Of a DNA stretch of 64,000 bases, positions 17,948-19,375 are shown piece by piece. This stretch comes from Escherichia coli. Its GTDB lineage: Bacteria; Pseudomonadota; Gammaproteobacteria; Enterobacterales; Enterobacteriaceae. The stretch's first letter is position 1; each line of letters opens with the position of its first letter. Where the stretch lies: the NCBI RefSeq assembly GCF_003790525.1, contig NZ_CP033635.1; one strand, written 5' to 3'. The position numbers and the translations under genes are program-made. A model generated the notes under the pieces. That model made no database searches and had not been told where the DNA came from. It saw only the letters and a list, made by a program, of their open reading frames with translations.

Positions 17948-18960
17948 TTAAAATAGCATTTGAGTCAAATAGCCCATCAAGATAGCCATACCTAATATAA
18001 CCGTCAGGAATGCAACTATCATCGGTATTCTGAACATTGATTTAAGTAATATCACTTCCGTCAGGCTTGCGCCGGCACTGCCGATGATTAATGCCATTAA
18101 TGCTCCCAGACCCATTCCTTTTGTCATCAAAACAGATGCCAGAGGGATAACTGCCTCTGCCCGGATATATAGCGGAATACCAACAACGGCGCTCAATGGG
18201 ATGGCGAAGGGATTATCTGCCCCTGCATGAGCGGCAATCCACTCTGAGGGAATAAAGCCATAAATAAAAGAGCCTATTAATACCCCTAACAAAGATATGG
18301 CAGTACATCTTTAAACTGTTGCAACGCATCTTTGGTGGCTAGTTTTATGGGATTAATACTTACCACAGCTTTGGTATTGCAACAGTTAACTACGGGTTTC
18401 TCAATGGCTTTAGCCGTTGGACTACAGCAACTCACTTCTATTGGCGTATATGTCGTCCCCGGCGAAGTTTTGGCTGGAGCACAACAATTTGCTGATGAGC
18501 TTTTACTGGCAATGATATGACGTTCAAATCCCAGGGAATCCAGGATAATACTGGCAAGTACGGAGACGCCGGCGGCGATAATCGCGTACAACAAGGTAAC
18601 TTTCCAGCCAAAGGTCACCCACATTAACCCGACGATAATGGGATTAAGTAATGGGGAAACAAATAAAAAAGTGAGGGTCGGACCAAACCCGGCTTTCGCT
18701 GATAACAATCCACGTAACATGGGGATTGTCGAGCAACTACAGAACGGGGTAACGGCTCCCAACAGAGCAGCCAGGAGATAACCTCTCCCTTTTCTGGCCC
18801 CCATCATCTGCTGGATTTTATGGTCTGGCACCTTTTGTCTTATCAGGCTGACACCGGCACTAATCACTATAAACAGCAAAGAAAGCTCGACGGCGAGAAA
18901 CACAAACATCTCTGCGGCATCTTGCAGCATCGCAAGCCAACTACTCATACGTAACCTCAT
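17948..18960 (-). pseudogene. putative permease, apparently frameshifted (two ORF fragments 18286..18960 and 17948..18292)
   Basis: The 224-aa N-terminal fragment (multi-TM, cysteine-rich loop CCAPAK...CCSPTAK...CCNTK) ends at TAG 18286; the 114-aa C-terminal fragment is open only from 6 codons upstream of a TTG, with no ATG or SD; 7-nt overlap is consistent with a single-base indel. Confidence 0.5.
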
Positions 18961-19054
18961 TGAATAAATCTATATTTCCAGAATAATCGAAATGAAATTC
19001 AGATCAAGATATTTCTGGTATTATCGAAATATCAACCAGACAGAGGGGAGTCAT

Positions 19055-19375
19055 ATGCAGTTGGAAGAAGTTGCTAAAGCGCTGAAAGAGCTAGGTCACC
19101 CGACCCGTTTGTTCATATTTAAGCATCTGGTCAAAGCGGGGGAACAAGGTTTGCCGGTCGGTGAGTTGCAAAAGCAGCTTGGGATACCCGGCTCTACACT
19201 CAGTCACCATATTTCAGCACTGGTATCGGTAGGGTTGGTCAAACAAAACCGTGAGAGTCGGACGCTGATGTGTGTTTCGCAATACGCAATGCTGGAAGCG
19301 ATAATTGAATTTTTACGTGAGGAGTGCTGCGTAAACAGCAAAACAGATGGCGAAGGAGCCACGAAGAACAAATAA
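19055..19375 (+). CDS. ArsR/SmtB-family transcriptional regulator (not arsR)
   Basis: 106 aa from ATG 19055 with SD gagggg; winged-HTH region LPVGELQKQLGIPGSTLSHHISALVSVGLV; C-terminal CC pair; divergent from the permease. Confidence 0.75.
   Translation: MQLEEVAKALKELGHPTRLFIFKHLVKAGEQGLPVGELQKQLGIPGSTLSHHISALVSVGLVKQNRESRTLMCVSQYAMLEAIIEFLREECCVNSKTDGEGATKNK

Follow-up and report, generated by a model that had tools for sequence, protein, structure and literature searches.

A divergent arsR-arsP gene pair beside arsRBC in Escherichia coli, a probable sensor and pump for trivalent organoarsenicals

Results

A second arsenic-related gene pair lies beside arsRBC

In a 64 kb window of the E. 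coli SMS-3-5 chromosome (the whole stretch analyzed, to which all positions refer), we found a two-gene unit, an ArsR/SmtB-type regulator and a divergent permease, flanked by a YhiS-like gene (16145-17368) and arsC-arsB-arsR (19396-21531), the location given in the initial annotation. Judged from sequence, the pair is probably an arsR-arsP unit complete in itself and directed at methylarsenite and other trivalent organoarsenicals, and the Escherichia counterpart of SpArsR-ArsP of Shewanella putrefaciens 200. By homology, the regulator is orthologous to SpArsR, which is selective for methylarsenite (~58% identity, same cysteines, same putative operator), and the permease belongs to the ArsP_1 family, which bears out the earlier suggestion of a second arsenic-related regulator-transporter module. 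The substrate had been left broad, as a metal, metalloid or thiol-reactive compound; the arsenic-related part of that claim stands, refined to trivalent organoarsenicals as the likely substrate of the permease rather than arsenite or a metal cation. This is a known kind of sensor-pump pair, and the E. coli copy is an unlabelled member of it: RefSeq names the two products only 'permease' and 'ArsR/SmtB family transcription factor', and a literature search on the E. coli regulator and permease genes found no paper.

The regulator carries a C-terminal vicinal cysteine pair and lacks the type 1 motif

Open reading frame, translation, profiles and homology place the ArsR/SmtB-family, SpArsR-type repressor at 19055..19375 on the + strand, with a Shine-Dalgarno sequence read at 19043..19050 (+; GAGGGGAG); its length of 106 aa, good ribosome-binding site and C-terminal CC pair are all as first described. 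A longer 127-aa product from the ATG at 18992 was ruled out in favor of the start at 19055, because the N-terminus MQLEEVAKALKELGHP is conserved across genera and the Shine-Dalgarno sequence fits this start. The protein passed the family thresholds of Pfam HTH_20 (2.9e-14) and HTH_5 (1.6e-06), and scored 61.7 bits on the NCBIfam ArsR/SmtB model NF033788 (cut-off 55).

The type 1 (R773) CVC motif (Cys32/34/37) is absent from the DNA-binding domain of this regulator, where the region reads GLPVGELQ with no cysteine, whereas the canonical ArsR of the adjoining arsRBC (21178-21531) has ELCVCDL. The cysteines lie instead at Cys73 (19271-19273) and at Cys91-Cys92 (19325-19330), the latter in a C-terminal part that reads ...LREECCVNSK.... 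The best PDB match is AfArsR (6J05, 3e-10), with EECC aligned on ENCC (Cys95/96), and C73, E90, C91 and C92 are invariant across 23 aligned homologues. The tail VNSKTDGEGATKNK has no cysteine and hence no equivalent of AfArsR Cys102, as is also true of the Citrobacter, Aeromonas and plasmid copies; some Vibrio homologues have an extra C-terminal cysteine, as in AfArsR.

The permease is a full-length ArsP-family protein

Across the 106 bp intergenic region 18949-19054, the divergent permease gene is present in this copy as two reading frames. The N-terminal part (18286..18948, - strand; defined by ORF list, RefSeq start, Pfam and hydropathy) holds TM1-4, the CSC motif and the Cys-rich loop, and the C-terminal part (17948..18292, - strand; ORF list, profiles and RefSeq contiguity) holds TM5-8 in a different frame, encoded by a 114 aa ORF. 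The N-terminal ORF spans 224 aa (18286-18960), or 220 aa when read from 18948, the conserved start; we preferred the latter to the start at 18960 because RefSeq also begins the gene there, a GAGG Shine-Dalgarno sequence stands 8 nt upstream, and the resulting N-terminus is the conserved one. Of the multi-TM permease with three CC dipeptides described in the initial annotation, the divergence and the CC loop are confirmed, but the single ORF is not, a 1-nt deletion having split the gene.

The intact permease of the RefSeq reading, WP_000100281.1, is 333 aa long and matches Pfam ArsP_1 (PF03773) at 1.5e-52, with residues 9-330 on positions 3-293 of the 294-position model; together with 37% identity to Campylobacter jejuni ArsP, this settles the earlier question of a DUF318/ArsP-type permease in the affirmative. 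The C-terminal part matches the C-terminal half of the SO_0444 and SaoE profiles. Hydropathy shows a 4+4 arrangement: residues 9-142 and 214-333 each contain four hydrophobic segments, separated by a hydrophilic stretch at 143-213, and four plus four TM segments around a central hydrophilic loop is the topology of the ArsP family (PMC7176098). Net charge is positive in both the first and the central loop, which is incompatible with a simple 4-TM count. Similarity between the two 4-TM halves was not significant by BLASTP, and a PDB sequence search found no solved structure matching the permease.

The motif TPFCSCS occupies residues 67-73 (Cys70-Ser-Cys72 at 18733-18741) and is invariant in 17 homologues with identity down to 27%. 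A C(S/T)C motif in a transmembrane segment is universal in the ArsP family, with tPF preceding it in cluster 2 (PMC4435449). The central Cys-rich loop (18310-18522) contains three CC dipeptides, at Cys155/156, 174/175 and 189/190. In the SpArsR-linked ArsP subfamily this loop is hypervariable: its CC dipeptides number from 0 to 6, and it is lengthened by short tandem repeats such as APVSTxxCCD in Aeromonas simiae.

A single-base deletion interrupts the permease in this copy

Base-by-base comparison with the RefSeq record of the same strain (NC_010498.1) located the frameshift at 18290..18293, where a run of three A residues replaces four. The deletion (AAAA to AAA) falls after permease codon 219-220, at the start of TM5, and produces the premature stop at 18286-18288. 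This copy could sense but not export, because its permease is frameshifted, unless the deletion is a sequence error. Translational rescue, or re-initiation at the TTG at 18292, was set aside for want of a Shine-Dalgarno sequence and of a credible slippery site.

That the permease is a true pseudogene in the source genome, leaving a decaying remnant in which only the regulator is intact, is quite possible, if not the outcome we would expect. The frameshift and the absence of a Shine-Dalgarno sequence at the downstream TTG argue for it, the relics in K-12 show that the locus can decay, and two further single-base differences from NC_010498.1, one of them outside any homopolymer, suggest that the sequence may stem from an independent isolate or stock. 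However, the gene is intact in the same-strain RefSeq record, to which the rest of the 64 kb is identical apart from those two differences, and none of 2048 E. coli genomes carrying the 81-nt segment shares the deletion (exact match of the window's 81-mer). The deletion also lies in a homopolymer run, where sequencing errors typically fall. Decay of the gene would concern this copy only; it is compatible with the organoarsenical explanation of the family, and we judged its probability independently.

Paired putative operators overlie predicted face-to-face promoters

The pattern ATTTC-N10-GAAAT occurs twice in the whole 64 kb (expected 0.13), both times in the divergent intergenic region. We predict that these dyads are operators: O1 at 18974..18993 (ATTTCCAGAATAATCGAAAT), which is conserved across genera, and O2 at 19011..19030 (ATTTCTGGTATTATCGAAAT), which is invariant in the E. 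coli, Citrobacter, Aeromonas and plasmid copies. A consensus scan predicted sigma-70 promoters with 9/12 matches each for the regulator (TTGAAT-16-AATAAT, 18960..18987, + strand) and the permease (TTGATA-18-TATCTT, 19006..19035, - strand), although such a scan is weak alone, having found 4 sites in the region versus 2.9 expected. O1 overlaps the -10 element predicted for the regulator promoter and O2 fills the spacer of the predicted permease promoter. By sequence comparison, the O2 core is one mismatch from a box in the SpArsR-regulated S. putrefaciens arsP promoter. Downstream of the regulator, a terminator scan detected a GC-rich hairpin (19374..19392) between the convergent regulator and arsC stops, which likely serves both as a shared terminator.

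Searching species-representative genomes with the O2 20-mer returned 18 further regulator-linked loci, and at these the permease gene lies divergently beside the regulator wherever the fetched DNA reached far enough. The remaining two of the 20 genome matches, in a Bacteroidales MAG and a Marinimicrobia MAG, were taken as chance because no regulator is nearby.

The module is ancestral at this site and widespread on plasmids

The module is present in 2221 of 5426 complete E. coli genomes (41%). In line with the initial annotation, K-12 lacks it, a K-12-type genome showing yhiS::IS5 followed directly by arsC. The inference that the module is accessory holds insofar as its presence varies. The module also stands beside arsRBC in E. 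fergusonii and E. whittamii, and K-12 keeps relics of both module genes only; because of these two observations, we conclude that the module is ancestral here and that K-12 lost it, rather than SMS-3-5 having gained it.

Citrobacter, Aeromonas, Vibrio, Shewanella, Desulfovibrio and plasmids have this divergent pair as well, so the pairing of regulator and permease is not due to chance. It stands beside arsRDABC in Citrobacter, beside an arsR-arsM-arsP cluster in Desulfovibrio and inside an ars island in Shewanella. The Aeromonas and plasmid modules stand alone, away from any ars gene, which counts against the organoarsenical reading. The module is common on plasmids: hundreds of conjugative plasmids of Enterobacteriaceae carry it as cargo of Tn3-family transposons, and many of them come from poultry and pigs.

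Weighing the substrate

Further observations besides the solitary modules count against trivalent organoarsenicals: identity to the characterized proteins is moderate (58% to SpArsR, 37% to C. jejuni ArsP), the curated NCBIfam models nearest to the permease are metal exporters, and the invariant Cys73 could be a third ligand. The last two also speak for an alternative that we consider unlikely, in which the pair senses and exports another thiophilic species, either As(III)/Sb(III) in inorganic form or one of the soft metal cations Cu, Zn, Cd and Hg, with Cys73 of one subunit and Cys91/92 of the other forming a three-thiolate site and the CC-rich loop binding metal. Cys73 is invariant together with E90-C91-C92 and, in the ArsR/SmtB fold, would sit just before the dimerisation helix, where it could face the C-terminal end of the partner. 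The further C-terminal cysteine of some Vibrio homologues is AfArsR-like, and the lack of adjoining ars genes in Aeromonas and on plasmids would likewise fit a metal or As(III) substrate. The best NCBIfam matches of the permease are the SO_0444 Cu/Zn (NF033936) and SaoE (NF040736) efflux families, but at 109.9 bits against a cut-off of 300 and 86.3 bits against 325, respectively, membership of both was rejected. SaoE is reported only together with Sao import partners (preprint), none of which was seen near the permease gene, and C. jejuni ArsP (37% identity) is nearer to the permease than the thioredoxin-linked DUF318 permeases are (27-33%).

As to the cysteines, SpArsR itself has the equivalent of Cys73 and yet is As(III)-insensitive. 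SpArsR is reported to be MAs(III)-specific because the third cysteine is missing (PMC11868830; PMC13236881), and a reporter built in E. coli from SpArsR and the arsP promoter responded to 0.1-1 µM MMAs(III) while reaching only 9% of the derepressed level with 50 µM As(III) (PMC12124457). A regulator of the BigR/SqrR/YgaV kind that senses thiol redox state or reactive sulfur, with a permease exporting a sulfur compound or other thiol-reactive electrophile, is highly improbable: YgaV and BigR rank second and third among the regulator's PDB matches by sequence and both proteins of the pair are cysteine-rich, but the match to the BigR-type model (NF040642) is partial and its 38.3 bits far under the cut-off of 155, which excludes membership, no cysteine stands opposite Cys73 in the YgaV or BigR alignments, the YgaV alignment (the only one to reach the C-terminus) matches just one cysteine of the CC pair, no sulfur-metabolism gene is among the conserved neighbours at the loci compared, and the orthologue SpArsR is induced by methylarsenite (PMC12124457).

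Discussion

Our data suggest how a unit for trivalent organoarsenicals would operate. From the operator match and the predicted promoters, a repressor dimer would bind the two ATTTC-N10-GAAAT dyads over the face-to-face divergent promoters and keep both the regulator and permease genes off. Methylarsenite, for which two thiol ligands are enough, would bind vicinal Cys91-Cys92 at the C-terminal end of the dimerisation helix and release the repressor, while arsenite, which requires three ligands, would be a poor inducer, both as shown for SpArsR. The 8-TM permease would then export the organoarsenical via the membrane-embedded Cys70-Ser-Cys72, as shown for C. jejuni ArsP, homology to which points to efflux as the role of the SpArsR-linked Cys-loop ArsP subfamily. 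A speculative role for the variable CC-rich central loop is substrate capture. Going further, the CC loop might be an integral domain for capturing arsenicals, with capacity tuned by its copy number, and, separately, the plasmid module might be an unrecognized resistance determinant for organoarsenicals of the roxarsone era, co-selected with antibiotic resistance; we regard both ideas as rather doubtful.

If the assignment is right, about 41% of complete E. coli genomes probably possess a sensor and a pump dedicated to trivalent arsenicals, methylated or aromatic, and E. fergusonii, Citrobacter, Aeromonas and many resistance plasmids are probably likewise equipped. Such arsenicals are made by gut and soil microbes and are also derived from organoarsenical feed additives. 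Co-selection of the plasmids in livestock is offered as a testable lead. K-12 derivatives are without the module, consistent with their use to host MAs(III) reporters and to express ArsP, and the native E. coli regulator and operator are on offer for MAs(III) biosensors. The picture of how such systems work is unchanged.

Comparison with characterized systems

The SO_0444 Cu/Zn efflux and SaoE families share PF03773 and the CSC motif with the permease, but their genomic partners are unlike those of the permease gene, and the permease scores far below their cut-offs. AfArsR of Acidithiobacillus ferrooxidans, with its type-2 As(III) site (Cys95/96/102), has a CC pair at the end of its C-terminal helix that matches the regulator's exactly; it differs in having Cys102, in responding to As(III), and in an identity to the regulator of only about one third.

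C. jejuni ArsP (TC 2.A.119), for which efflux of MAs(III) and Rox(III) is reported (PMC6205960), aligns with the permease over its full length (37% identity, E = 3e-71). Both are Pfam ArsP_1 proteins with 4+4 TM segments, TPFCSCSTIP is identical (C. jejuni Cys65/67 corresponding to Cys70/72), and the CC of the C. jejuni loop aligns with a loop CC of the permease. The C. jejuni protein is shorter (315 versus 333 aa), with one CC pair where the E. coli permease has three, and its gene, located through exact primer matches, is the first of an arsP-arsR-arsC-acr3 operon controlled by a canonical CVC-type ArsR, rather than standing divergent from a regulator of the SpArsR type.

The closest counterpart is SpArsR-ArsP of S. 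putrefaciens 200 (Sput200_1227 and Sput200_1226). We rebuilt the SpArsR sequence from the published construct and confirmed it with a natural S. profunda orthologue; at its N-terminus, SpArsR is 10 residues longer than the E. coli regulator. The Shewanella intergenic region is 222 bp versus 106 bp, and the Shewanella pair is embedded in a large ars island with arsJ-gapdh, two ArsC, a canonical ArsR and a second DUF318 protein, whereas the E. coli pair abuts only arsRBC. In other respects the two systems agree closely. Both have the same divergent two-gene layout, SpArsR and the regulator are identical at 53 of 92 residues including the whole recognition helix (PGSTLSHHISAL), and SpArsR Cys83/101/102 correspond to Cys73/91/92, both proteins having the C-terminal vicinal CC and lacking an AfArsR Cys102 equivalent. 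Shewanella ArsP (S. profunda orthologue) and the permease are 51% identical and have TPFCSCS and a CC-rich loop in common, and the S. putrefaciens arsP promoter and the E. coli intergenic region share the putative operator core ATTTCTGGTATTATCGAA.

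Gene organization and a private frameshift

The 2-kb region around the module matches E. coli SMS-3-5 (NC_010498.1) over its whole length with one gap, and the RefSeq gene order is dctR, slp, a YhiS-like hypothetical protein, 'permease', 'ArsR/SmtB family transcription factor', arsC, arsB, arsR, dinQ and gor. The YhiS-like gene (16145-17368, minus strand) is followed by the permease gene (17948-18948, minus strand, placed from window ORFs and RefSeq), the regulator gene (19055-19375, plus strand) and arsC (19396-19821, minus strand), then arsB and arsR. Translation bears out the regulator proposed in the initial annotation, a 106-aa protein with the Shine-Dalgarno GAGGGGAG 4 nt upstream of its start and a C-terminal CC pair (...LREECCVNSK...).

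The permease proposed alongside it has its three loop CC dipeptides, but it is not a single ORF in the window: it is split between two ORFs (18286-18960 and 17948-18292) that lie in different frames, with the frameshift at 18290-18293, where base-by-base comparison gives AAA in the window versus AAAA in RefSeq. Among 2048 complete E. coli genomes that carry the segment, not one matches the window's 81-mer across this site exactly; all align there with one gap, which makes the break private to this copy. It may be an error of sequencing or a genuine mutation, and it stands as a caveat for this particular sequence.

Across the whole 64 kb only two further differences from NC_010498.1 exist: a 1-nt deletion at 30215, in the uspB-uspA intergenic region but outside any homopolymer, and, within the final codons of rbbA, A for G at 43044, which looks synonymous (CTA/CTG, Leu). 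Elsewhere in the window, the haem-uptake cluster (chuA, chuS, chuT-hutW-hutX-chuY-chuU-chuV; 1-14589) is inserted in the acid-fitness island between dctR and yhiD, which adjoin directly in a K-12-type genome, and hicA, the toxin gene of a hicAB pair (about 44262-44536), is marked frameshifted in the RefSeq annotation.

The permease is an ArsP-family protein

Profile and identity comparisons of the permease used the restored reading frame, which gave a full-length match to ArsP_1 (PF03773, 1.5e-52), the type for which the initial annotation proposed a test. Two NCBIfam equivalogs come nearest, SO_0444 Cu/Zn efflux (109.9 bits versus a curated cut-off of 300) and SaoE (86.3 versus 325), and both were rejected as far below threshold. 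Hydropathy places Cys155/156, Cys174/175 and Cys189/190 in a hydrophilic stretch between two four-segment hydrophobic blocks, and the published ArsP fold is 4+4 TM with a variable loop (PMC7176098).

For comparison with the experimentally characterised C. jejuni ArsP, we searched with a published primer and obtained a C. jejuni arsP-arsR-arsC-acr3 operon on a metagenome contig; the contig (GC 29%) contains five published primers exactly, including a C. jejuni-specific one, and a sixth with one mismatch. Its 315-aa ArsP has Cys65-Ser-Cys67 within TPFCSCS and one loop CC, and the permease is 37% identical to it over its full length (E = 3e-71), and both TPFCSCS and a loop CC align. Published surveys call the C(S/T)C motif universal in ArsP (PMC4435449), and TPFCSCS does not vary among 17 family members, the most distant at 27% identity. 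Across 285 core columns, C. jejuni ArsP shares 37-39% identity with the E. coli clade, versus 26-28% with thioredoxin-linked DUF318 permeases. The ArsP linked in Shewanella profunda to the orthologue of SpArsR (the MAs(III)-selective ArsR of Shewanella putrefaciens 200) is 51% identical to the permease and shares its CC-rich loop. Loop length and CC count vary within the subfamily, from none (Enterovibrio) to six, and the loop appears to grow and shrink through short repeats; in Aeromonas simiae (L032, 7934-9082) the six CC dipeptides lie in tandem APVSTxxCCD-like repeats. Any role for the CC-rich loop is speculative.

The regulator shares its cysteine pattern with SpArsR

The regulator matches Pfam HTH_20/HTH_5 and passes the generic NCBIfam ArsR/SmtB cut-off, and no specific NCBIfam equivalog was passed. 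Its closest solved relative is AfArsR of Acidithiobacillus ferrooxidans (6J05, 3e-10), on whose ENCC (Cys95/Cys96) HMMER aligns the regulator's EECC, whereas the third ligand, Cys102, is without a counterpart. This is exactly the pattern described for SpArsR (PMC11868830; PMC13236881). A 2025 biosensor study identifies SpArsR as Sput200_1227, with control over the promoter of neighbouring arsP (Sput200_1226), and prints the 222-bp native promoter and a codon-optimised arsR gene (PMC12124457). Translating this gene, after two small repairs where letters were missing, gave a 105-aa SpArsR; the repairs are confirmed by the natural S. profunda orthologue, which departs from the resulting protein at just two other positions. 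SpArsR is identical to the window regulator at 53 of 92 residues (about 58%), and its Cys83, Cys101 and Cys102 correspond to regulator Cys73, Cys91 and Cys92. These three cysteines and Glu90 are invariant among 23 regulator homologues, down to 57% identity.

NdArsR of Noviherbaspirillum denitrificans, the other published MAs(III)-responsive ArsR, likewise has a CC pair at its end (…QQRCCQGV), and the promoter of its Nd-ars construct holds an ATTTCC…GAAAT dyad (PMC12124457 supplement). This suggests that members of this ArsR clade have an operator grammar in common.

Paired putative operators in the divergent intergenic region

The 106-bp divergent intergenic region contains two ATTTC-N10-GAAAT dyads, O1 (18974-18993) and O2 (19011-19030), the only such sites in the 64-kb window (0.13 expected; two or more in 0 of 100 shuffles). 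O2 and its flanks do not vary between E. coli, one Citrobacter chromosome, Aeromonas and plasmids of Salmonella and E. coli, whereas the remaining spacer drifts. In the Shewanella arsP promoter, one box is one base off the O2 20-nt core and a second is two off. Searching 100,044 species-representative genomes with the 20-mer ATATTTCTGGTATTATCGAA returned 20 loci; a regulator homologue directly adjoins the match in 18, and a permease gene lies divergently on its other side in every such locus reaching that far. A consensus scan found weak sigma-70-like promoters in the region, and each dyad would cover the -10 element or spacer of one predicted promoter as well as the opposing promoter's 5' leader.

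Distribution in Escherichia and loss in K-12

Of 5426 complete E. coli genomes, 2221 carry the module (at least 80% coverage), and E. fergusonii and E. whittamii share the E. coli order arsB-arsC-regulator-permease. As the initial annotation stated for K-12, a K-12-type genome has yhiS::IS5 and then arsC, without the module. Its 629-bp yhiS-arsC gap holds, at L006 5278-5589, a 17-nt permease relic and a 62-nt relic of the regulator 3' end (79% identity, E = 1e-10), ordered as in the window, with REP-like palindromes alongside. K-12 has therefore lost the module, and these relics mark an old deletion.

Other genera and plasmids

In Citrobacter (L007-L009, 1-13092), the module follows arsRDABC within a lambdoid prophage, flanked by replication genes (DnaT, lambda P) and by DinI/RusA/DUF968, holin and lysozyme; the block looks like phage-borne arsenic-resistance cargo. 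In Desulfovibrio, it adjoins an arsR-arsM-ArsP_1-thioredoxin cluster whose methyltransferase scores above the arsenite methyltransferase cut-off. In S. profunda, the SpArsR orthologue and its ArsP lie in an arsenic island (L029, 1265-8398) together with arsJ-like MFS and GAPDH genes, two ArsC of the LMW-PTP type, a canonical CVC ArsR and a second DUF318 permease that lacks the loop (29% identity); part of this order recurs in Shewanella sp. ANA-3 (L040).

The module is chromosomal and not near ars genes in Aeromonas, and stands alone in Vibrio and Shewanella sp. D64. In several Aeromonas spp. (L028, L032, L034, L036, L037), a further ArsR-like gene with 33-35% identity to the regulator lies about 100 bp past the regulator gene, in the same orientation, with the permease on the regulator's other side. 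On Salmonella and E. coli plasmids, the module is alone or adjoins a Tn3-family transposase and IS1. On the E. coli plasmids pE15-1 and pEC21Z147-128K (L004, L005), the copy encodes a 377-aa permease and a 107-aa regulator; flanking it are a Tn3-family transposase, a resolvase pseudogene and IS1, with TEM-1 and a class 1 integron nearby; in one of the two, IS66 splits the permease. Homologues turned up by tblastn on 1000 plasmid records; identity is 60% or higher for 645 of these, which are mostly conjugative. Many come from poultry or pigs, an anecdotal observation uncorrected for how plasmid sequencing is sampled.

A probable organoarsenical sensing and efflux unit

The main rival interpretation is that the module is an arsenite or soft-metal system: Cys73 is invariant in the regulator family, the module sometimes stands away from ars genes, and the curated models closest to the permease are metal exporters. 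However, SpArsR has the Cys73 equivalent too and yet ignores arsenite, its reporter reaching 73% of the derepressed level at 1 µM MMAs(III) and 9% at 50 µM As(III) (PMC12124457), so Cys73 alone is no argument for arsenite sensing and this interpretation is weakened.

Taken together, the evidence points to an arsR-arsP unit of the SpArsR-ArsP kind that would sense and export organoarsenicals: both proteins belong to the corresponding families, with the cysteine architecture, operator sequence match and conserved gene pairing described here, and the module is linked to ars genes in four genera. Judging from these relatives, the inducer would be MAs(III) and similar trivalent organoarsenicals, the permease would export organoarsenicals, and the regulator would repress the divergent promoters in a similar geometry. 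Searches by RefSeq protein accessions and by arsP with roxarsone, E. coli and plasmid found no paper on these E. coli genes. The SpArsR-ArsP kind is already known, and the E. coli module, not annotated as such, would be a further member of it.
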